Below, piece by piece: positions 10,155 to 53,943 of a stretch of 64,000 bases of DNA. Under the pieces are notes generated by a model. That model was not told the DNA's origin and made no database searches. It saw only the letters and a list, made by a program, of their open reading frames with translations. The position numbers were made by a program, and so were the translations under genes. Within the stretch, counting starts at the first letter, position 1; every line of letters starts with the position of its first letter. Source of the stretch: Patescibacteria group bacterium (GTDB lineage Bacteria; Patescibacteriota; CPR2; UBA1875; CAIMLA01); the NCBI GenBank assembly GCA_041738615.1, contig JBGSPL010000001.1, positions 10,706-74,705 on the forward strand, in the 5' to 3' direction.

Positions 10155-11629
10155 TGAATAAATACGAAGTTGTAATCGGATTAGAGGTTCATGTTCAACT
10201 AAAGACTGTGAGCAAGATGTTTTGTGGCTGCGACAACAAGTCAGTTAATGCCGAACCAAATATGAACGTTTGCCCAGTCTGCCTAGGGATGCCTGGGATG
10301 TTACCAGTAGCAAACAAGAAAGCTATAGAATGGACGTATCTCTTGGGTATGGCTCTCGGAGGCGAGATCTCGGATTACTGGAACTTCGAACGCAAAAATT
10401 ATTTTTACCCAGACCTCCCAAAAGCGTATCAGATTACCTCAGCTACAAATCCTCCTGTCATAGGTGGTGGTCTCACGGTTGTTGCCGACGGTACGGAGAG
10501 ACAAGTACGAATCCATCACATTCACCTAGAGGAGGATGCGGGTAAACTGGTACATCCTAGTGGTAAGCAGTACAGCTTGGTTGATCTAAACAGGGCCGGT
10601 ACCCCACTGATGGAAATTGTTACAGAGCCTGATCTACGTAGTGCTAGTGAGGCACGGATATTTATGCAGGACTTACAGTCGATTTTGCGTTACCTCGGCA
10701 TCTCAGATGCAAATCTAGAACAGGGAAATATGCGCTGCGATGCCAACATTAGCCTACGACCCGTAGGCCAAAAAGAATATGGCACTAGAGCTGAAATCAA
10801 GAATATCAATTCCTTCAAGATGGTGGAGAGGGCAATCAATTACGAAGTAGAACGTCAGACAGAGATTCTAGATGCTGGAGAAAAAGTGAAGCAGGAAACT
10901 CGAGGCTGGGATGACAACAAGGGGAAGACCCTCCCTCAACGTAGCAAGGAAGAGGCAAACGATTACCGATACTTTCCAGAACCCGACTTGCCTCCAGTCA
11001 AACAGGGCGGGGGGAGTATAATTGACATAGAAGCTATTGGGTCCATGCTGCCCGAGCTGCCCAAGGAAAAGGCTAGTAGGTTCCTTTCTGATTACGGTTT
11101 GTCTACTATCGACGCCGAGACCATAACCAGCGACCTTGAAACAGCGCGTTACTTTGAACAAGTATTAGAGGAAATGCCGGAAATCGCAGGCAATTCGGAA
11201 CTCGCCAAAACAAAGGCGAAAAAGGTTTCCAATTGGCTTCTTTCGGAGCTCATTGCAAAGCTAAACGAAGCCTCTACCGGTATAAGTGACACTAAGATTA
11301 ACCACAAGGATTTTGCAGCGCTCATTACACTGATTGACTCAGGGGATATTAGCGGTAAGATAGCCAAAGAAGTCTTTGCGGAAATGTTTGAGAGCGGCCA
11401 GAGTCCTGAGGCTATTGTGAAGGAGAAGGGACTGGTTCAAATCAGTGACACGGGTGCAATCGCAAAGATTGTCGAAGAGGTTGTGGCCGTTAATGAAAAA
11501 TCAGTCTCTGATTTTCGCGAAGGGAAACAACAGGCGTTCGGTTACCTAATAGGTCAGGTTATGGCAAAAACACGGGGCCAGGCAAACCCTAAGCTTGTAA
11601 ACGAAATATTACGTGAGAAACTAAAATAG
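10154..11629 (+). CDS. gatB: Asp-tRNA(Asn)/Glu-tRNA(Gln) amidotransferase subunit B
   Basis: GatB/GatE catalytic N-domain (EVVIGLEVHVQL, FCGC...C) and C-terminal YqeY-like tail. Confidence 0.95.
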   Translation: MNKYEVVIGLEVHVQLKTVSKMFCGCDNKSVNAEPNMNVCPVCLGMPGMLPVANKKAIEWTYLLGMALGGEISDYWNFERKNYFYPDLPKAYQITSATNPPVIGGGLTVVADGTERQVRIHHIHLEEDAGKLVHPSGKQYSLVDLNRAGTPLMEIVTEPDLRSASEARIFMQDLQSILRYLGISDANLEQGNMRCDANISLRPVGQKEYGTRAEIKNINSFKMVERAINYEVERQTEILDAGEKVKQETRGWDDNKGKTLPQRSKEEANDYRYFPEPDLPPVKQGGGSIIDIEAIGSMLPELPKEKASRFLSDYGLSTIDAETITSDLETARYFEQVLEEMPEIAGNSELAKTKAKKVSNWLLSELIAKLNEASTGISDTKINHKDFAALITLIDSGDISGKIAKEVFAEMFESGQSPEAIVKEKGLVQISDTGAIAKIVEEVVAVNEKSVSDFREGKQQAFGYLIGQVMAKTRGQANPKLVNEILREKLK

Positions 11630-13803: not shown

Positions 13804-14116
13804 GTATTTAGTTGTTGAGACGACAGTCGATTCGGCCGCAGAAGCAGATAAATTAGCTTTATTGGTGCTGGATTTTCGTTTGGGTGCATGCGTGCAGGTA
13901 ATTCCTGGGGTCAGTAGTAAGTACTTCTGGAAAGATAAAATTGAGGAAGCGGGTGAGTTTATTCTACGAATAAAGAGTCGGGAAGATAAATATGACGCCT
14001 TAGAGACGTTGATTCTCGCTAATCATCCATATGAAATACCAGAAATAATTGCCGCAAAGGTAAAGAAAATTTCAAAAGGCTACGCCAACTGGCTAGACAC
14101 CGAACTAGACCGCTAA
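13790..14116 (+). CDS. cutA: divalent-cation tolerance protein CutA
   Basis: About 108 aa, HPYEIPEII CutA1 signature. Confidence 0.8.
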   Translation: MADARYLVVETTVDSAAEADKLALLVLDFRLGACVQVIPGVSSKYFWKDKIEEAGEFILRIKSREDKYDALETLILANHPYEIPEIIAAKVKKISKGYANWLDTELDR

Positions 14117-14257: not shown

Positions 14258-17200
14258 TTGTCCGCAGCTAAGCCAAAATTTGTTCATTTGCACGTTCATA
14301 CTCATTACTCTCTCCTCGACGGGATGGGCAAAATTCCCGACTACTTGGATCGGGCGAAGGCGCTTGGTATGCCGGCGATGTCTATTACCGACCACGGTGT
14401 TATGTACGGTGCAATCGAGTTCTACAAAGAGGCCAAGAAGCGCGATATCAAACCAATCATTGGATGCGAGTGCTACGTTGCTCCACGGACACTTCACGAT
14501 AAAGAAGCCAGAATCGATAATAGGCCACACCATTTGGTACTACTTGCCAAGAATAACACCGGCTACAAGAATTTGATGAAGCTGGTTACCATCGCCCATA
14601 TCGATGGCTACTATTACAAACCGAGGATCGATAAGGATACTCTGCGGCAGCACTCGGAGGGCCTAATCGGGATGTCTGCATGTCTCAACGGGGAACCTGC
14701 GCGAAATGTTATGAATGGGGATTACGAAAAGGCAAAGGCAGCAGCTCTAGAATACGAAGAAATCTTCGGTAAAGACCACTATTATTTGGAGCTTCAGGAT
14801 CAGCCAGGTGCAGAAGAGCAAACGAGAGCCAACGAGGGCCTCAAGAAGATTGCCAAAGAAACAGGGATTGGACTTGTCGTTACAAATGATGTTCACTACG
14901 TGAACAAAGATGACGCAGAGGCTCAAGACATCCTGCTCTGCGTACAAATGGGCAAGACAGTAAACGACGAAGATCGCATGAAAATGACGATGGACAACAG
15001 TATGCGTACTTACGAGGACCTGTTGGAAGCATTTCCAGACGTTCCCGAGGCTTTCGAAAATACGGTGAAGATAGCTGAAATGTGTGATGTCAGTATAGAG
15101 CTTGGGGGCATCCTGATTCCTGACTACCCAGTCCCAGCAGGTTTCACGGTTAGTGCCTATCTGGAAAAACTTGTAAACGAGGGGGTTTCAAAACGCTACA
15201 AGGAGCGCACACCGGAGCTTGAGGAGCGTTTGAAGTACGAGCTTGGCGTGATAGAACGTATGGAATACCAGGGCTATTTCTTGATAGTTCAGGATTATGT
15301 GAACTGGGCCAAAGACCAAGGAATCATTGTAGGCCCAGGCCGCGGATCAGCGGCTGGATCAGTAGTGGCATACGCGCTAGGGATTGTAGATCTCGAACCG
15401 ATGCAGTATGACCTCCTTTTCGAGAGATTCCTAAATCCAGACCGTATATCCATGCCTGACGTAGATATGGACTTTGCGGATGACAGACGCCATGAGGTAA
15501 TCTCTTATGTAACGGAGAAGTATGGCCAGGATAAGGTGGCACAAATCATAACCTTTGGAACGATGAAGGCTCGCAATGCAATTCGCGATGTAGGACGAGC
15601 ACTCGGTATGGTTTATGGTGATGTGGACCGAGTGGCAAAGATGGTTCCTGAGGTCCTCAACATTCGTCTCAAGGAAGCCCTAGAGACAGGACCAGAGCTG
15701 AGGAAGGCATATAACGAAGAGCCGGAGATCAAGCACCTTATTGATCTAGCGATGAGACTCGAGGGTGTAGCGCGTCATAGTTCTACCCACGCTTGTGCTG
15801 TTGTGATTTCTCGTGACCCCCTGGTCGAGTATGCTCCTCTGCAAAAGGCAACCAAAGGTGATATCGCCATCAATACACAATACGAGATGCACGCGATTGA
15901 AGATCTTGGTCTGCTCAAAATGGACTTCCTGGGTCTTTCCAACCTGACTGTCCTAAACAATGCGATGCGCATAGTCCGCAAGGTATATGGCGATGAGATA
16001 GACCTTTATACCTTACCGACCGACGATAAGAAGACGTATCAACTGCTTTCAAAAGGAGAAACTACTGGTGTTTTCCAATTGGAATCTGCAGGGATGAAGC
16101 GATATATCAAAGAACTAAAGCCTACGGTTTTTGAAGATATCATAGCGATGGTTGCTCTGTATCGCCCAGGTCCTATGGAGAACATCCCTGAGTTTATTGC
16201 TCGTAAGCATGGTAAAAAAGCGATTAAGTATCAGCATCCATTGATGGAGACGGCGCTCAAGAATACTTATGGAATTACCGTATATCAGGAACAGGTCATG
16301 CAGATTTCGAAGGATCTGGGCGGGTTTACTGGGGGACAGGCAGATACTTTGCGTAAGGCTATTGGGAAAAAGATCTCAAAACTGCTCAAGCAGATGCGCA
16401 CAGAATTCGTAGACGGTGCAAAACGTGAACACGATGTACCGCCAAAACTAGGCAACGAGATCTTTGACGGTTGGGAAGCCTTTGCTTCTTACGCTTTCAA
16501 TAAATCTCACGCTGCTTGTTATGCCCTGATTTCATATTGGACAGCGTATCTGAAGGCACACTATCCGGCAGGCTTTATGGCTGCACTGATGACCTCTGAT
16601 TATGGAAATATGGATCGCATTACCATAGAGATCGACGAGTGTCAAAGAATGGGGATCGAGGTTCTTCCCCCCGATGTGAATGAATCATTTGCCGAGTTTG
16701 GCGTCGTTAAAGATACGGGTAAGATTCGTTTTGGTCTCATGGCTGTAAAGAACGTGGGTAAAGGCCCTATAGAAGCTATCCTTGCAGCTCGCGAGGAGGG
16801 TGGCAAATTTGTCTCGATTGAGGATTTTGCCCGACGTGTTCATACGTCAGAGGTCAACAAAAAGATGTTGGAGTCACTCATCAAGTGCGGTGCCATGGAT
16901 TGCCTGGGAGATCGAGGTACATTACTTTCCAATATGGAACGTATCCTAATGTTTAGTACTAAATCGCAAGGCAGCGCCGCAAGCGGGCAGATAGACCTTT
17001 TTGGTGGTCAGGGGATAGAGATGCCACCGCTCAAGCTAGAGCCAGCGCCACGGAAGCTGACAACTCGGGAGCTTCTAGGCTGGGAAAAGGAACTCCTCGG
17101 CATCTATATATCGGCGCACCCCATAAACGAGTACAAAGAGATTTTAATAAAAAATAACATTACCCCGATAGTAGAGCTCACAGAAGAAATGAATAATCAG

Positions 17201-46420: not shown

Positions 46421-48511
46421 ATGCCTAGAGAATATTCACTCGAAAACACAAGAAACATCGGAATTGCCGCTCATATCGATGCTGGTAAAACCACTGTAAC
46501 CGAGCGTATCCTATACTATACTGGTCGTACTCATAAGATCGGTGAAGTGCACGAGGGTGCAGCTACTATGGACTGGATGGAGCAGGAGCAGGAGCGTGGT
46601 ATTACTATCACATCCGCAGCGACTACTTGTTTTTGGGCTGGTCATCGTATCAACATTATTGACACACCAGGTCACGTAGACTTTACCGTAGAGGTAGAGC
46701 GTTCTTTGCGCGTATTAGACGGTGCGGTCGTAGTATTTGACGGTAAAAATGGTGTAGAGCCTCAGTCCGAGACTGTATGGCGCCAGGCCGATAAATATCA
46801 TGTTCCACGTATCGCTTTTGTAAACAAACTTGACGCTATCGGCGGCGATTTCTATATGTCGCTGGAATCTATCAAGGAACGTCTCGGTGCCAATGCAGTT
46901 GCTATGCAGCTGCCTATCGGTATGGAGTCTGGCTTCTCTGGTGTTGTAGACCTCATGGAGATGCGTTCGATCAACTACGGTAACGAGGATATGGGCAAAG
47001 AGCAGCATATCGCCGAGATTCCTGCTGACATGCTCGACAAGGCCAATGAATATCGCGCTATTATGGTAGAGAAAATTGCCGAAACCGACGACGCTCTTCT
47101 CGAGAAGTTCTTCGACGGCAAGGAAATCACTGTACCAGAACTCAAGGCTGCGCTTCGCAAGGCTACTATCGCCAACGAAATCGTGGGTGTTTTTGCCGGT
47201 ACTGCGCTTAAAAACAAGGGTGTTCAGCCAATGCTTGACGCCGTTATCGATTATTTGCCAAACCCGCTCGAGGTTCCTGCCGCTCATGGTGAGGACCCAA
47301 AGACTGGCGAGGAAGTAGCAGTAGAGAGTACCGATGATGGTCCTTTCTGTGGTCTTGTTTTCAAGATTGCTGCCGACCCATTCGTCGGTAAGCTTGCTTT
47401 CTTGCGTGTTTATCGTGGTCGCCTTGCTTCTGGAAGTTACGTTCTAAACGTAGCCACTGGGGAGAAAGAGCGTATCGGACGTATCGTTCGCATGCACGCC
47501 AACACCCGCGAAGAAGTGAGTGAAGTTTTCTCAGGCGAGATCGCTGCTGCAGTAGGTCTCAAGAATACTCTTACCGGTAACACTATTTGTGATCCTACCC
47601 ACCCAGTATTGCTCGAGAATATTACTTTCCCAGAGCCTGTGATTCAGGTTGCCATCGAGCCAAAGACCAAGGCCGACCAAGAGAAGATGGGCATCGCCCT
47701 CTCTCGTCTCGCCGAGGAAGATCCTACTTTCCGCGTCCATACCGATGAAGAAACAGGCCAGACTATCATAGCTGGTATGGGTGAGCTTCACCTCGACATT
47801 CTTGTCGACCGTATGAAACGCGAGTTCAAGGTAGAAGCAAACGTAGGTAAACCTCAGGTTGCTTACCGTGAGTCTATCAAGGGCAAGGTTAAACAGGAAG
47901 GTAAGTTCGTACGTCAATCTGGTGGACGTGGTCAATATGGTCATGTTTGGATCGAGATTGAGCCTAACGAAGAAGGTCTAGGATTCGAGTTCATCAATAA
48001 GATTGTTGGTGGCGCGATTCCAAAGGAATACATCAATCCAGTACAGAACGGTATCCGTGAAGCACTAGACAACGGTGTTATTGCTGGTTATCCAGTAGTA
48101 GACGTCAAGGTTACTCTCTATGACGGTTCATTCCACGAGGTAGACTCGAACGAAATGGCCTTCAAGATTGCTGGTTCCATGGCGCTTCAGGAGGGTGTCC
48201 GCAAGGCGACTCCTATTATTCTAGAACCAATTATGAAGGTAGAAGTTACCGTACCGGAAGAGTATATGGGTGATATTATGGGAGACCTCAACTCGAAGCG
48301 TGGACGCATTCAGCAGATGTCGGACCGCGGCAATGCCAAGATCGTAGACGCTTTCGTCCCACTAGCTGAGATGTTTGGCTACGCTACAAACTTGCGTTCT
48401 ATGACTCAGGGTCGTGGCACTAGTACAATGGAATTTGACCACTACGAAGAAGTTCCAGGAAACGTGGCTGCTGAGATTATCGCGAAGCGTGGTAAGAAAC
48501 AGGCAGAATAA
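46421..48511 (+). CDS. fusA: elongation factor G
   Basis: G-domain motifs [18 protein letters not shown], and domains II-V. Confidence 0.97.
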
Positions 48512-48518
48512 CCCCCAT

Positions 48519-48555
48519 CACGTCATTCCGGACCTGATCCGGAATCTATACAAAA
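48519..48555. repeat. hairpin repeat R2 (cGTCATTCCgg-ACCTGAT-ccGGAATCtatacaaaa)
   Basis: ATTCCGG/CCGGAAT stem starting 8 nt after the fusA stop. Same flanks as R1. Confidence 0.6.
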
Positions 48556-48580
48556 AGACCTCAGAAATGAGGTCTTTTTG
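48556..48580 (+). terminator. rho-independent terminator after fusA
   Basis: AGACCTCA-GAAA-TGAGGTCT followed by TTTT. Confidence 0.8.
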
Positions 48581-48590
48581 ATATCTAGTA

Positions 48591-48625
48591 TATTTGTCGT
48601 TCCTGGTCGTAAGCCAGGGATCCTC
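48591..48625. repeat. hairpin repeat R3 (tatttGTCgTTCCtgg-TCGTAAG-ccagGGAtCC)
   Basis: About 30 of 34 positions match R4 at 52078..52108. Confidence 0.55.
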
Positions 48626-48659
48626 CCCTTGGCTTGCCTTGCTAAAGCAAGGCATTCAC

Positions 48660-48689
48660 GATACTTTTGTCCATAGTCACAAAAGTATC
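48660..48689. repeat. perfect 11-bp-stem hairpin GATACTTTTGT-(8 nt)-ACAAAAGTATC
   Basis: Perfect inverted repeat. Sister element at 52214..52241. Confidence 0.6.
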
Positions 48690-48878
48690 CAAAAAGACAT
48701 TATAAATGCGGCGGTCTGAGGACCTTCGCAGCGGACAGTCATGCCTGAGCGGCTTGGGTTTAGTCAAATTGCGATCTCTCACAAATCTATAGGATTGGCC
48801 GTTGTAGTACACGCATTTTATTAATCTCACGTCCTAGGCCCTCCAGACACGTTACAGGGCAAGTTAACGTCAAAATCA

Positions 48879-48907
48879 TTGATTATTGCTCTATTTTGGC
48901 ATATAAT
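48879..48907 (+). promoter_or_regulatory. near-consensus promoter (TTGATT-17-TATAAT) at the head of GC-rich cassette 2
   Basis: TTGATT at 48879-48884 and TATAAT at 48902-48907. Confidence 0.6.
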
Positions 48908-48960
48908 CGCGGTCAGTAGTTTACAGAGCATGGGTTGACTTGCCCAGAGAGGGGAATCGT

Positions 48961-49131
48961 ATGCCGCAAGAAACTGCTGCTCCGGCTTGGATCGGATGGG
49001 TGCTCCTTCTAATCCCCACCGCCATGATCTTCATTGGACCCATGGCGTACAAGAGGCGCGATGACGTAAGAGCTTCGTGGCAAAGGCCGTCAGAGGATGA
49101 GATTAACCGATCGATTGGGTATCGCGGTTAG
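48961..49131 (+). CDS. small hydrophobic protein (56 aa, one TM helix), cassette 2
   Basis: GAGAGGGG SD 7 nt before the ATG at 48961. Sequence WIGWVLLLIPTAMIFIGPMAY followed by a basic tail. Confidence 0.4.
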   Translation: MPQETAAPAWIGWVLLLIPTAMIFIGPMAYKRRDDVRASWQRPSEDEINRSIGYRG

Positions 49132-49196
49132 CCCCGTCTGATAGGTAGTCAAAGGCGAGCGCGCCCCCCGGTGCGCACCTGACGAGAAGAGGGGAC

Positions 49197-49328
49197 ATGA
49201 AGAGGATACTGAGTGATTTGTGGTGGACCTTGGTGGTCTACCTGGTCTGCTCCATTGTCTGGGCCGTTTGTGGCCTGGCTTCGGTCGGGATCGTTCCTGA
49301 CCAGATTGGCGCCGACGAAGGCGCCTAG
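49197..49328 (+). CDS. small hydrophobic peptide (43 aa, one TM helix), cassette 2; not in the ORF track
   Basis: ATG at 49197 after AAGAGGGG. MKRILSDLWWTLVVYLVCSIVWAVCGLASVGIVPDQIGADEGA. Confidence 0.35.
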   Translation: MKRILSDLWWTLVVYLVCSIVWAVCGLASVGIVPDQIGADEGA

Positions 49329-49347: not shown

Positions 49348-49593
49348 GTGAGTAAGGTCATAGTCTCCCTGCCGGGAGGTAAGGCGATATTCACAGAGGA
49401 GCTTCCTCGGGAAGCAACGACGGTTTCCGTCGAGTATGCCCAGAGGCTCGTGGATCAGCTCGGGAAGACCGACGGGAGGAACTACCAGCTGTGCACTAAG
49501 CCTCAAGTCGCGAGCGACGAGGACGAGGAGCGCAATCTGCTTCCTGGAGATGTTCTCATCAGCATCGCCGATTTTGGTCCTCGTACAAACTGA
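49348..49593 (+). CDS. hypothetical protein (81 aa, GTG start), cassette 2
   Basis: GGAG SD 6 nt before the GTG. No family recognised. Confidence 0.4.
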   Translation: MSKVIVSLPGGKAIFTEELPREATTVSVEYAQRLVDQLGKTDGRNYQLCTKPQVASDEDEERNLLPGDVLISIADFGPRTN

Positions 49594-49658: not shown

Positions 49659-49687
49659 TTGTCAAGAATGCTTATCCATAGTAAGAT
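49659..49687 (+). promoter_or_regulatory. candidate internal promoter (TTGTCA-17-TAAGAT)
   Basis: AT-rich 60-nt spacer inside the GC-rich cassette. Moderate match to consensus. Confidence 0.35.
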
Positions 49688-49753
49688 ATCGCCATCGACG
49701 TTAGTGTCACTTGTGTGCGCCTAGCGGCGTGCACCTACCAAGGGGGGGCGGGG

Positions 49754-50233
49754 ATGATGAAACGCTGGTTACTCGACGGCTTGCAAGTGCTTGTGTTGTC
49801 AGCCGTACTGACAGCGGCTTGTTACGCGCCGGTTTTTGCCGGCATCTGGCTCTACGGGGTCATCGGGGGCTTGAACCTGTTCGTACTGTTCCTGGCTGTG
49901 GCTGTTGTGGCCATTCGCATCGCACTCTCACCACATGGTTTCGTTGAGCGTTCAGCGGACCTGTGGCTTGCAGCTGTGGGCATGTCGCTCGCGGCGCTTG
50001 AGATGTGGAAGCCGCTTCTCACTACAGTCGTCTGCTGCGAGTACTTCATGTTCATGGCAGTGCTCGGCTACGGTGCTCCAGTCTGGTTGCTCGGACTTCC
50101 GGTCGCGATTTGGCCGGTACTGCCACTGCTGGTTTTGGCCAGCACGTTGCTTCTCGGGATGTTCATCATGCTGGAGGCAGAGGGCGACGAATTCTCCGAC
50201 ACCAGCGAGCTGGCGCGGTCGTTCGGCCACTAG
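49754..50233 (+). CDS. hypothetical polytopic membrane protein (about 159 aa, 4-5 TM helices), cassette 2
   Basis: AGGGGGGG SD before the ATGATG at 49754. Strongly hydrophobic with an acidic C-terminus. Confidence 0.5.
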   Translation: MMKRWLLDGLQVLVLSAVLTAACYAPVFAGIWLYGVIGGLNLFVLFLAVAVVAIRIALSPHGFVERSADLWLAAVGMSLAALEMWKPLLTTVVCCEYFMFMAVLGYGAPVWLLGLPVAIWPVLPLLVLASTLLLGMFIMLEAEGDEFSDTSELARSFGH

Positions 50234-50304
50234 GGACACCAGTGTCTCAGGTTCCGGAGGTCCTGCAACGTAGGTTGTGGGGCCTCCGGAAGAGAGAAAA
50301 ATAC

Positions 50305-50333
50305 TTGCACAAAGTAGTGATATATAGTAATAT
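50305..50333 (+). promoter_or_regulatory. promoter for tuf (TTGCAC-17-TAATAT)
   Basis: TTGCAC at 50305-50310 and TAATAT at 50328-50333, with a 110-nt AT-rich leader. Confidence 0.45.
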
Positions 50334-50444
50334 TTGTAAGCCAAATGAATACATATCCACCACGTCACGAAGGACGGGGGGATTTAAAGTGTATTACAAG
50401 AATATTAAACAAAATTAACAAAGTAAAACTTACAAGGAGACCAA

Positions 50445-51620
50445 ATGGCTGAAGTTTATAAGAGAGACAAGCCCCATGTAAACGTTGGTACTATCGGACA
50501 CGTTGACCATGGTAAGACAACCCTGACCGCTGCAATTACATCGGTACTTGCAAAGAAAGGCCTAGCTACCGCTAGAAAGTTTGCCGACATCGACAACGCT
50601 CCAGAAGAGCGAGAACGTGGTATTACTATTGCTACTTCTCACCAAGAGTACGAGACAGAGAAGCGTCATTATGCGCACGTTGACTGTCCTGGACATGCCG
50701 ACTACGTAAAGAACATGATCACTGGTGCTGCACAGATGGACGGCGCTATCTTGGTTGTGGCAGCTACTGACGGTCCTATGCCTCAGACTCGTGAGCACAT
50801 CCTACTTGCTTACCAAGTTGGTGTTCCACAGATTGTAGTTTACATGAACAAATGTGACATGGTTGATGATGCAGAGATGCTTGACCTCGTCGAGATGGAA
50901 ATTCGTGAGCTTCTTACTAAGTACAAATATGATGGTGACAACACACCTATCATTCGTGGTTCAGCCCTCAAGGCGCTTGAAGGCGATGCTAAGTACGAAG
51001 AGTCAATCATGGAGCTTATGAACGCTCTTGATACATACATCCCAGAGCCTACTCGTGATACCGACAAACCTTTCATGATGGCTGTAGAGGACGTTTTCTC
51101 TATCAAGGGTCGTGGTACAGTTGCTACTGGTCGTATCGACCGTGGTGTTGTTAAGATCAACGACGAAGTAGAAATCATTGGTATTAAGCCTACTCGCAAG
51201 ACTGTTGTTACTGGTATCGAGATGTTCAAGAAACAGCTCGAGCAGGGACAAGCTGGTGACAATGCTGGTTTGCTACTACGCGGTATTGAAAAGAACGACA
51301 TTGAGCGTGGTATGGTTCTAGCAAAGTCTGGTTCTATCACACCTCATACAGAGTTTGACGCTGAAGTATACGTTCTTACCAAAGAAGAAGGCGGACGACA
51401 TACTCCTTTCTTCAAGGGTTACAAACCTCAGTTCTACATCCGTACAACTGACGTAACTGGTGAGATCGAATTCGAAGGCGAAATGGTTATGCCTGGCGAT
51501 AACGTCAAGATGGCCGTTAAGCTTATCCAGCCAATCGCTATCGAAGAGGGTCTTCGCTTCGCAATCCGCGAAGGTGGCCGTACAGTTGGCGCTGGTGTAG
51601 TTACCAAGATCAAGAAATAG
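50445..51620 (+). CDS. tuf: elongation factor Tu
   Basis: [18 protein letters not shown] motifs and domains II/III. Confidence 0.97.
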
Positions 51621-52043: not shown

Positions 52044-52064
52044 AGCCCCTTCGGGGGCTTTTTT
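52044..52064 (+). terminator. rho-independent terminator immediately after rpsJ
   Basis: AGCCCC-TTCG-GGGGCT followed by TTTTT. Confidence 0.8.
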
Positions 52065-52077
52065 GATTACCGGTATA

Positions 52078-52108
52078 TTGTCATTCCTGGTAGTAAGTCA
52101 GGGACCCA
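52078..52108. repeat. hairpin repeat R4 (tGTCATTCCtgg-TAGTAAG-tcagGGAcCC)
   Basis: Near-identical to R3. Confidence 0.55.
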
Positions 52109-52118
52109 GCCTTTCCAA

Positions 52119-52213: not shown

Positions 52214-52241
52214 GATACCTTTCTCTTGAAAGAAAGGTATC
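52214..52241. repeat. perfect 11-bp-stem hairpin GATACCTTTCT-CTTGAA-AGAAAGGTATC
   Basis: Perfect inverted repeat with the same GATAC...GTATC ends as 48660..48689. Confidence 0.6.
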
Positions 52242-52379
52242 CCAAAGTTCAAGAAAAATCGAACTCCCTCGTCTCTGTACGAAATTTTACTGAGCAAGCT
52301 CGCAATAATTTCTAGCATTCGACGATAGCCGGGCGCGCGGCACCGAGCGATTTTTCGGGGGAGTTGGAAGCGAATATTA

Positions 52380-52408
52380 TTGACAAAACGGCAATTTAGT
52401 ATTAAATT
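52380..52408 (+). promoter_or_regulatory. promoter at the head of GC-rich cassette 3 (TTGACA-17-TAAATT)
   Basis: Perfect -35 at 52380-52385. The TAAATT -10 is identical to the rpoB promoter -10. Confidence 0.5.
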
Positions 52409-52482
52409 ATAGTGTCGTCATAGCCCCGATGGCTATTTCGACGCACGTTGACGTTAATTCACGACACCAGGAGGTGTTTGCG

Positions 52483-52935
52483 GTGCCAAACGCTGGTCCT
52501 CGCACCGAAAAGACGGCCGGCGTGAAGCGGCCGAACTGTTTTTGGGTGGCTGTCTTCGAGGTGCTTACCGGTGGGAAGAAGTACCGCGTTGATTTCGCGG
52601 TGAGTCGTTCACAGAAGGACGCCTATCTGGCGGATGGTCACGATTCCTCTGTCGATCGCAACTACTCTCATCTGATATGCGCAAAGCTCAGGGATGAGCA
52701 CGGAGTTATCGTTGAGATTCTTGCACCGAGCCAGTTTCGCTTGATTGAGTTCCATTCACGCGATGCCGGTTCGATGTCCACCGAGGAGTTGGCCCGAATC
52801 ATGCGACGGACCGAGAAGAACACCGCCGAGACTGCTGCAATCGTGGCTGCTCACAACGATAAGAAGGCGGCCAAAGAGAAGGCTAAACGCCAGAGGATAA
52901 CCCGTACTGGAGATGGGCAAGCCGAGCTCTTCTAG
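52483..52935 (+). CDS. hypothetical protein (150 aa, GTG start), cassette 3 gene A
   Basis: AGGAGG 8 nt before the GTG at 52483, in frame with the ORF-track ORF 52429..52935. Lys/Ala-rich C-terminus. No family recognised. Confidence 0.45.
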   Translation: MPNAGPRTEKTAGVKRPNCFWVAVFEVLTGGKKYRVDFAVSRSQKDAYLADGHDSSVDRNYSHLICAKLRDEHGVIVEILAPSQFRLIEFHSRDAGSMSTEELARIMRRTEKNTAETAAIVAAHNDKKAAKEKAKRQRITRTGDGQAELF

Positions 52936-53010
52936 CCTTTGGCTCGCGCTCACAAGGATTTGCGTTTAGGGATGTGCCCAAACGTGAAACAGCACAGAGA
53001 GGGGAGTCGC

Positions 53011-53334
53011 GTGAACGAGCTGGAGCAGTTCTACGCGCATTTGCGGTTCTTCATCCGTGAAGGGCCGAAGTACGTCGTTCCTGGCAAGGAGAGTTGCCCC
53101 GAGGTTACCCTCGACACTCTCGTAAGGCAGGGCATGGAGCTCGAGCCTGAGCTTTGGGGCAATGAGACACAGACTCGCGAGATCATCTTTGGACTTCGCG
53201 GCATGGACCTCGCAGCCTGGGAGGTTTTTGCTCGCAAGAATCCCGAGGGTTTCAAGCGGCTCAAGTCGGCCTACGACTACGAGGAGGCGTTCCATATCGC
53301 GATGTCTCGCGAAGAGGCCGCCAAGAAACGCTAG
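53011..53334 (+). CDS. hypothetical protein (107 aa, GTG start), cassette 3 gene B
   Basis: GAGGGGAG SD 4 nt before the GTG at 53011, in frame with ORF 52939..53334. No family recognised. Confidence 0.4.
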   Translation: MNELEQFYAHLRFFIREGPKYVVPGKESCPEVTLDTLVRQGMELEPELWGNETQTREIIFGLRGMDLAAWEVFARKNPEGFKRLKSAYDYEEAFHIAMSREEAAKKR

Positions 53335-53344
53335 TGACGTCAAC

Positions 53345-53393
53345 GTCGACGACCGTGGGCGGTGGGGGAAACCCCGCTGCCCACGTCGACCAA
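53345..53393. repeat. 49-bp GC-rich hairpin-forming direct repeat, copy 1
   Basis: GTCGACGACCGTGGGCGGTGGGGGAAACCCCGCTGCCCACGTCGACCAA. GTCGACG/CGTCGAC outer stem, imperfect inner stem around a GAAA loop. Confidence 0.8.
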
Positions 53394-53460
53394 TTTAATA
53401 CTCTATATGGTACGAACAGTGCCACCAACGACGTCAAACCCCAGGAAGGGGTGTGGCTTT

Positions 53461-53883
53461 ATGACTGCAGGAATCGAGGAACTCATCCGAATCATCAACG
53501 ATTCGCGTGAGGGCAAGCATTTCGAGCTGACGTCACTGACTGTGATGTTGCTTACCGAAGGTAAACCGGACGGGGTCTTCTCTAGCTCGGTTCCCTTCCG
53601 CTACATCATCGAGTGCCTTCTCGACGGGTTTGAAGGCGCTTGGGTCAACGTACTCAGCGAGCGTCACCTCGACGAGGGGTACCAGGAGCTGTTGGCCCTG
53701 ACACCGTTTGGTGGTAAGCAGCTGCTCTTTGCCACTCACACTTCAGTGGGCCTTTCTTTGGAAGGGTTCGAGTTCCTGATGTGGGACGACGAGGGACACC
53801 TGCGGACACCCGAACGGGTAAAGGCTCAGTTCGGCAACGATGCCCTGGGTTGGCTTGAAGCCTGGGTTTACGAAGCTTCCTAG
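53461..53883 (+). CDS. hypothetical protein (140 aa), cassette 3 gene C, bracketed by the 49-bp repeats
   Basis: AGGAAGGGG SD about 10 nt before the ATG at 53461. Acidic. No family recognised. Confidence 0.45.
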   Translation: MTAGIEELIRIINDSREGKHFELTSLTVMLLTEGKPDGVFSSSVPFRYIIECLLDGFEGAWVNVLSERHLDEGYQELLALTPFGGKQLLFATHTSVGLSLEGFEFLMWDDEGHLRTPERVKAQFGNDALGWLEAWVYEAS

Positions 53884-53889
53884 CTTGAC

Positions 53890-53938
53890 GTCGACGACCG
53901 TGGGCGGTGGGGGAAACCCCGCTGCCCACGTCGACCAA
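53890..53938. repeat. 49-bp GC-rich hairpin-forming direct repeat, copy 2
   Basis: 49 of 49 identical to copy 1. Ends 5 nt before the rplC promoter -35. Confidence 0.8.
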
Positions 53939-53943
53939 AATAG

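Follow-up and report, generated by a model that had tools for sequence, protein, structure and literature searches.

A candidate small membrane partner protein in a GC-rich orphan islet between fusA and tuf of a Patescibacteria genome

Two very small open reading frames (ORFs), of 56 and 43 amino acids (aa), lie at positions 48961-49328 of a 64,000-nucleotide stretch of a Patescibacteria group bacterium (GenBank assembly GCA_041738615.1, contig JBGSPL010000001.1, positions 10,706 to 74,705 of the forward strand; referred to here as the window), in the gap between the translation genes fusA and tuf. The second of these ORFs, running on the + strand from an ATG at 49197 to a TAG at 49328, is very probably a genuine coding gene, and codon comparison with a related genome places its frame under purifying selection. 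It would encode a single-pass membrane peptide and form the opening cistron of a conserved three-gene module (43, 81 and 158 aa), and with about an even chance the peptide acts in the membrane as a small partner of the 81-aa and 158-aa proteins encoded with it. Annotation routinely misses small membrane proteins, and both window ORFs are uncalled in the searched collection; the 43-aa gene adds one sequence-validated, lineage-restricted small membrane protein.

The 43-aa gene and its conserved operon

The gene order in the window is rpoB-rpoC-rpsL-rpsG-fusA, islet, tuf-rpsJ, second islet, rplC, with fusA at 46421-48511 and tuf at 50445-51620. The fusA-tuf gap is a 1.9-kb islet with a G+C content of ~58% against a background of ~47%, and the G+C peaks (~58%) coincide with the two gaps, at 48.9-50.3 kb and 52.4-53.9 kb. 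Four ORFs of 56, 43, 81 and 158 aa lie in the first gap, all on the + strand. Three relatives carry an islet at the same site, namely L002 (a 1-kb Logan contig), L003 (NCBI metagenome-assembled genome (MAG) GCA_964501135.1, found via its RpsG protein and the conserved tuf leader) and L008 (NCBI MAG GCA_964511435.1). Exact look-ups of EF-Tu and RpsL brought no further genome. An assembly chimera was rejected, given that the islet occurs at the same junctions in four assemblies from different samples and that a single 1-kb contig covers fusA, the membrane gene and tuf.

Both small ORFs are present as originally predicted, each with one hydrophobic segment. In the 43-aa ORF the best 19-residue Kyte-Doolittle window scores 2.39 (residues 12-30), the start is preceded by a Shine-Dalgarno (SD)-like GAGGGG, the N-terminus reads MKR and the tail reads PDQIGADEGA, with 2 K+R against 4 D+E residues. 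The 56-aa tail is of mixed charge and begins KRR; in the 43-aa peptide the tail is acidic and the N-terminus basic. Counting both strands, the 64 kb contain 90 ATG-initiated ORFs 40-70 aa long, of which four have a transmembrane (TM)-like segment and ten an SD-like motif 5-14 nucleotides (nt) upstream of the start; the two properties combine in only two ORFs, which are exactly those of 56 and 43 aa.

The homologue in L003 (45/43 aa, 13957/13963-14094) is 58% identical to the window peptide, with LSDLWWTxVVYLVC, in the N-terminal half of the helix, and the terminal DEGA both invariant; Asp7 and Trp9-10 are among the conserved residues. Nei-Gojobori counting with Jukes-Cantor correction gave a ratio of nonsynonymous to synonymous divergence (dN/dS) of 0.33 (pS 0.54, pN 0.26); the values of the 81-aa gene (0.19-0.25) and the 158-aa membrane gene (0.21-0.50) are similar. 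Raw pN/pS is lowest in the 43-aa frame, at 0.48, the other five giving 0.60-1.25 (Fisher's exact p=0.008), and the top tblastx score between the window and L003 falls in that same frame. The G+C contents at the three codon positions (GC1/2/3) are 0.55/0.43/0.75, like those of the adjoining genes, and 0.55/0.39/0.82 in the L003 orthologue, which an independent gene caller predicted on Logan contig L007, there with 43 aa. A JGI metagenome search with the 43-aa alignment found nothing, and neither small ORF has a paralogue within the window. Conservation, which the original prediction proposed as a check on both ORFs, divides the pair: the 43-aa peptide has a related-species homologue under purifying selection and the 56-aa ORF shows no conservation.

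The order 43, 81 and 158 aa is kept in L003, with junctions that are 20 nt and overlapping, respectively. The 81-aa gene (GTG start, 49348-49593, + strand) follows the peptide gene after 19 nt in the window and after 20 nt in L003, where its 86-aa counterpart overlaps the membrane gene by ATGA. Of the four assemblies, three have the 81-aa gene, the most widespread of the set, and three the membrane gene; the peptide occurs in two, always directly 5' of the 81-aa gene, and both of the genomes that have it carry both partners.

This arrangement suggests a GC-rich accessory islet of 1.9 kb between fusA and tuf with its own promoter or promoters, in which the peptide would have a basic and probably cytoplasmic N-terminus, a Trp-rich TM helix with a conserved Asp, a short acidic tail and a conserved DEGA end. 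It may be co-expressed with the 81-aa and 158-aa proteins and assemble with them in the membrane. There it would serve as a small subunit that assists or stabilises them, comparable to KdpF or CydX, and not as a self-contained toxin under RNA control; we infer this function, as we do the topology in the membrane and the physical association. KdpF (kdpFABC), CydX (cydABX) and AcrZ resemble the peptide in being single-pass proteins of 30-50 aa whose genes share a transcription unit with those of larger membrane or partner proteins, and KdpF is likewise a first cistron. They are conserved together with their partners; for the 43-aa peptide this is seen in the two genomes that have it, and the partners occur without it in L002 and L008. 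The KdpF/CydX type is a functional class, not a sequence family. None of these proteins has a sequence relationship to the 43-aa peptide, the partners here are orphans, the partner set varies between relatives and the association is predicted.

Several results weigh against a partnership of this kind. The peptide family was seen in two genomes only, so that its conservation is one pairwise comparison of 43 codons; furthermore, L002 carries the membrane gene alone, and L008 lacks a 158-aa homologue and pairs its version of the 81-aa gene with another membrane ORF, of 103 aa. Given this imperfect co-occurrence, an obligate three-part complex is not required. The AlphaFold2 (AF2) model of the 158-aa protein, with a predicted local distance difference test score (pLDDT) of 54.6, is unusable. 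The upstream 56-aa ORF, which would also belong to the islet's gene content, has no peptide homologue among 5.8 billion protein clusters, has flat GC1/2/3 values (0.54/0.51/0.60) and was left uncalled by the gene callers on either assembly.

Toxin and bacteriocin readings of the peptide

The original prediction favoured a type I toxin, i.e. one or both peptides as membrane-depolarising toxins checked by an antisense RNA. Their size, their one TM segment and the strength of the promoter agree with this, and the known type I toxins Hok, Ldr, TisB, Fst and BsrG are like these ORFs in size, single hydrophobic helix, strong promoter and structure near the ribosome-binding site. A GC-rich hairpin does lie just 5' of the 43-aa SD, and in the minimum-energy fold a CCCC tract just 3' of the 56-aa stop pairs with that SD, although with z only -1.75 the fold is not significant. 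A single promoter-like site is also found on the minus strand at 49710-49683 (9/12 matches), but it falls in the spacer between the 81-aa and 158-aa genes; L003, where these two genes overlap, has no such spacer, and there is no minus-strand promoter-like site near the L003 peptide gene. Searches of Pfam (which includes the Hok, Ldr, TisB and Fst families), NCBIfam, PADLOC and PHROGs produced no match above noise for either peptide, and in the first three of these collections none to a described toxin family such as Hok/Gef, Ldr, TisB, Fst, Ibs or ShoB. Type I toxin genes are stand-alone cistrons, often in several genomic copies. The 43-aa gene also heads a conserved multi-gene unit instead of standing alone, its tail is acidic and the 64 kb hold no second copy. 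An operonic, acidic-tailed, single-copy gene without a family match differs from the known toxins on each of these points, and no antisense promoter-like site is conserved between the window and L003; the toxin reading is regarded as very improbable. The looser alternative offered alongside it, a membrane-active regulator (or partner), fits the 43-aa peptide better.

The peptide could instead be aimed at other cells. The analysis took the window for a Candidatus Saccharibacteria chromosome. Saccharibacteria are epibionts, and most of their host-interaction genes are unknown; the 43-aa peptide, perhaps together with the small peptides encoded directly behind the islet promoter (the first slot), might be a leaderless-bacteriocin-like effector targeting other cells, possibly the host bacterium, with the multi-TM protein providing immunity. 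The peptide is Trp-rich and hydrophobic without a signal-peptide cleavage motif, a small polytopic membrane protein adjoins it, and the first slot is non-homologously replaced between relatives, as in polymorphic toxin/immunity loci. Leaderless bacteriocins of 40-55 aa are Trp-rich too, but they are strongly cationic, whereas the net charge of the 43-aa peptide is negative, and they have an adjacent immunity or transporter gene, whereas the islet has no transporter gene. L002 retains the membrane gene without any peptide, and a dN/dS of 0.33 gives no sign of diversifying selection. In the light of these differences a bacteriocin-like role appears improbable.

The islet promoter, its leader hairpins and the 56-aa ORF

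Transcription of fusA would end at a strong terminator hairpin (48551-48580, + strand; a 13-bp perfect stem followed by a T-run, 97% identical in L003), and the islet is therefore taken to form a separate transcription unit or units. The best promoter site in the region is a sigma-70-type TTGATT-17-TATAAT at 48879-48907 on the + strand, with 10/12 consensus matches. Copies of TTGATT-N13-GGCATATAAT stand at corresponding positions in the relatives, two in L003 (12859 and 13868) and one in L008 (9569), and as a sequence element the islet promoter is conserved across the window, L003 and L008. Both ORFs had been placed directly behind a consensus promoter, a description that holds for the 56-aa ORF, which starts 54 nt past the -10 box, and fails for the 43-aa ORF, which starts 290 nt past it.

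Two inverted repeats were observed around the promoter. One has 12-nt arms, GGGCAAGTTAAC and GTTGACTTGCCC (48857-48868 and 48934-48945; 92% complementary), that bracket it, and the region of the left arm (AGGGCAAxTT) is kept in L003 and L008. The other is a perfect 10-bp repeat, GATACTTTTG-N10-CAAAAGTATC, upstream of the promoter at 48660-48689, and none was seen in L003.

A GC-rich leader hairpin, GAGCGCGCC-CCCC-GGTGCGCACCT (49157-49180, + strand), stands just 5' of the SD of the 43-aa ORF, and a second copy, GTGTGCGCC-TAGC-GGCGTGCACCT (49713-49736, + strand), precedes the 158-aa gene. These are the two occurrences in the window of the motif GTGCGCNCC-N4-GGNGCGCACCT, against a chance expectation of 0.02. 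More generally, several unrelated islet ORFs have the palindrome GTGCGCGCC-N4-GGCGCGCACCT between their promoter and their SD, and its sites in the relatives are at ~183-206 in L002, at ~13914-13939 and ~12912-12930 in L003 and at 9621-9644 in L008. Substitutions in the stem are mostly G-U wobbles, which fits an RNA hairpin without proving it, a DNA operator being equally possible; the hairpin has no Rfam entry. The second copy is preceded by an internal promoter-like site, TTGTCA-17-TAAGAT (49659-49687, + strand), with a counterpart in L002, picked out by eye, of TTGTCC-17-TAATAT, which is the sole promoter-like site before the membrane gene there.

Behind the promoter each relative differs. 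L002 reads fusA end, terminator, promoter, leader hairpin, 160-aa membrane homologue and tuf, with none of the three small ORFs. L003 has two units, the first consisting of promoter, a 78-aa membrane ORF, an 82-aa ORF, a 106-aa ORF and a terminator, and the second of the repeat promoter and hairpin, the peptide homologue, the 86-aa homologue and a 179-aa membrane homologue. In L008 the promoter and hairpin are followed by an unrelated ORF of 103 aa with two TM segments, then by the 82-aa counterpart of the 81-aa protein, a 60-aa ORF and tuf. In L003 and L008 the slot directly behind the promoter thus holds unrelated small TM ORFs with an SD, of 78 and 103 aa respectively.

In the window this slot is taken by the 56-aa ORF (ATG 48961 to TAG 49131, + strand), which has an SD motif, GAGAGGGG, and one predicted TM segment (best 19-residue Kyte-Doolittle window 2.01, residues 11-29). 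It sits in a stretch of 240 bp peculiar to the window (48908-49146), which separates the promoter from the leader hairpin; no counterpart of this segment was found in L002, L003 or L008 at the DNA or protein level. The ORF is strain-specific and its coding status is unproven. As part of the partner proposal it would be the variable first slot behind a conserved promoter, filled in each relative by a different small membrane ORF unrelated to the others. Translation of the 56-aa ORF is conceivable and may help to open the 43-aa SD. Alternatively, the 240-bp segment could simply serve the transcript of the 43-aa and 81-aa genes as a long 5' leader, its open frame being fortuitous, and we give this somewhat less than an even chance. 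The missing homologue, the missing gene call, the flat codon-position G+C and the absence of the segment from all three relatives speak for it, as does the position of the hairpin 12-23 nt after the promoter in L003 and L008; an open frame of 56 codons is not unusual at the local G+C, and frames of such length are common in the region. What stands in its way is the combination of an ATG, a well-spaced SD-like GAGAGGGG and a TM-like segment, matched in the window only by the 43-aa ORF, and the fact that the slots of two relatives likewise open with a small membrane ORF behind an SD. An 18-nt likeness between two SD regions (48942-48959 versus 52992-53009) was considered as a sign of common origin and dropped, as about 0.4 chance matches are expected by our own estimate.

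Neighbouring proteins and the wider islet region

The context is more unusual than the peptide, in that orphan, GC-rich, self-promoted cassettes lie within the conserved str/S10 cluster and vary among close relatives. The islet proteins are all singleton clusters among ~15 billion proteins, and no fusA-tuf islet ORF has a significant match in Pfam, NCBIfam, PADLOC or PHROGs.

The 81-aa protein is acidic and predicted to be soluble, with homologues in L003 (64% identical) and L008 (53%). Its AF2 model, built on three sequences, has a pLDDT of 85 and the order b-b-a-b-(b)-a-b, which together with the size matches ubiquitin. Foldseek searches with this model against the PDB and viral models returned, as top matches, nearly all ubiquitin, SUMO or other ubiquitin-like (Ubl) domains, including that of EccD5, but all were weak (E 0.04-0.3; template modelling scores mostly 0.3-0.45, the best 0.55-0.59), so the modelled ubiquitin-like beta-grasp fold is suggestive only. 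No match to YukD, ThiS, MoaD or ubiquitin was found in Pfam, a profile search of PDB sequences was empty, and the alignment had no match in JGI metagenomes or viral contigs. The protein ends in a conserved FGPR followed by a variable tail, with no C-terminal Gly-Gly. YukD and the N-terminal Ubl domain of EccD, from type VII secretion, are like it in the predicted b-b-a-b-b-a-b order, in their ~80 residues and in accompanying membrane proteins; they differ in that the fold matches here are weak (E of at least 0.04), the Pfam match and the Gly-Gly are lacking, and no FtsK-type ATPase or other type VII gene lies near the 81-aa gene. An exhaustive HMMER search with the 81-aa family found one true relative (P0010); a further match, to an acidic protein of 4244 aa built of repeats (E 1e-4 as the sum over 15 of them), was rejected as a compositional or repeat artefact.

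The 158-aa membrane protein (49757-50233, + strand) has hydrophobic stretches that fit about four TM segments and an acidic C-terminal tail; ExWK and VEY are conserved motifs in it. Its homologues are 59% identical by BLASTP and 53-54% by global alignment in L002, and 35-36% identical in L003; a genome-collection search with the alignment found nothing. In L008 its place after the 81-aa homologue is taken by the 60-aa ORF (10267-10449), a CxxCxGxG ORF whose two CxxC motifs (CPECHG and CWKCFGSG) are reminiscent of DnaJ-type zinc fingers. Downstream of the window gene lies a hairpin with an 18-bp stem (50252-50291, + strand; -38 kcal/mol, z=-6), also present in L002, and the right edge of the islet is the tuf leader/promoter region (50299-50444, + strand), with 97% identity to L003 and 77% to L008. 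A repeat element of ~55 bp (48575-48630, + strand) abuts the fusA terminator. Its second window copy, at 52060-52114, is just past the rpsJ terminator, so that the element marks the left edge of both islets, and it also occurs in L003 (16860-16902). The two window copies, where none is expected, are ~80% identical and hold a TTCCTGG..CCAGG hairpin.

The second GC-rich islet (~55-58%), between rpsJ and rplC at 52400-53940, contains three orphan ORFs without family matches, of 168 aa (52429-52935), 107 aa (GTG start, 53011-53334) and 140 aa (53461-53883). L003 carries homologues of the 168-aa and 107-aa ORFs, with 59% and 64% amino acid identity and dN/dS of 0.19 and 0.30, respectively. A perfect 51-bp direct repeat (53343-53393 and 53888-53938), which forms a long hairpin (-39 kcal/mol, z=-6.4), brackets the 140-aa ORF. 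In L003 there is a single copy of this hairpin and no 140-aa ORF, which looks like insertion of a cassette, or a duplication, at the hairpin.

Islets built in this way might be what is left of a phage or mobile element, for example of a moron or a holin-like lysis cassette, inserted into the str operon without any cellular role. The promoter-ORF-hairpin units of foreign G+C, the variation of cassette content between relatives and the perfect repeats around the 140-aa ORF would suit such an origin, and the fusA-tuf islet does resemble phage morons and small genomic islets in its self-contained promoter-gene-hairpin units of deviant G+C, placed between conserved genes with presence/absence variation. 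It differs from them in lying inside the str/S10 ribosomal cluster of a reduced genome with no mobility genes, and in a high G+C at third codon positions (GC3) that persists despite saturated synonymous divergence. The islet DNA had no match in the phage and plasmid collections, the 81-aa family had none among viral contigs, the PHROGs matches were insignificant and the islet has no integrase or transposase ORF. Furthermore, species whose synonymous divergence is saturated share the islet as an orthologous segment kept under purifying selection, and we regard a remnant without cellular role as highly improbable. No tRNA gene was found near the islet, and an Rfam scan of 44-55 kb returned two sub-threshold chance matches only.

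The flanking genes have a mixed history. Comparison of the window with L003 gives 95-96% identity for tuf (synonymous divergence, dS, 0.23; protein 98-100%) and about 88% for rpoC (protein 96-99%), whereas codons ~120-420 of fusA (46780-47680) reach a protein identity of only 38-75%, with a dS of 1.5 for fusA. The similarity of tuf and rpoC set against this divergent middle of fusA makes the region a recombination mosaic, and the fusA pattern indicates recombination with a divergent lineage. Meanwhile, islet GC3 is 0.6-0.8 in all four genomes, against ~0.45 for the host, despite dS of 1-1.9, near or beyond saturation. Taken together, GC3 and the mosaic pattern fit, without proving it, an exchange of cassettes through translation-gene homology arms.

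It is conceivable, if unlikely, that the fusA-tuf and rpsJ-rplC spacers of this clade are recombination-fed expression slots. A conserved promoter and a GC-rich leader hairpin would then drive interchangeable orphan cassettes, mostly encoding small membrane proteins, that are swapped between lineages with the ultra-conserved flanking translation genes as homology arms, and the products, including the 43-aa peptide and its partners, would be surface or membrane factors of an epibiotic lifestyle. The persistent GC3 at saturated dS, the mosaic fusA, the near-identical tuf and the cassettes that differ between relatives are all consistent with such slots. Should they prove general in the clade, they would offer a tractable place for finding epibiont accessory functions and for studying gene uptake by such genomes. 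Finally, an intergenic repeat of ~135 bp (86% identical) was observed in the rpsJ-rplC spacer of the window (52221-52357) and at two places in L003 (1007-1139 and ~17060-17200), one of them the spacer between clpP and a NIF3-like gene, a site that has no spacer in the window.

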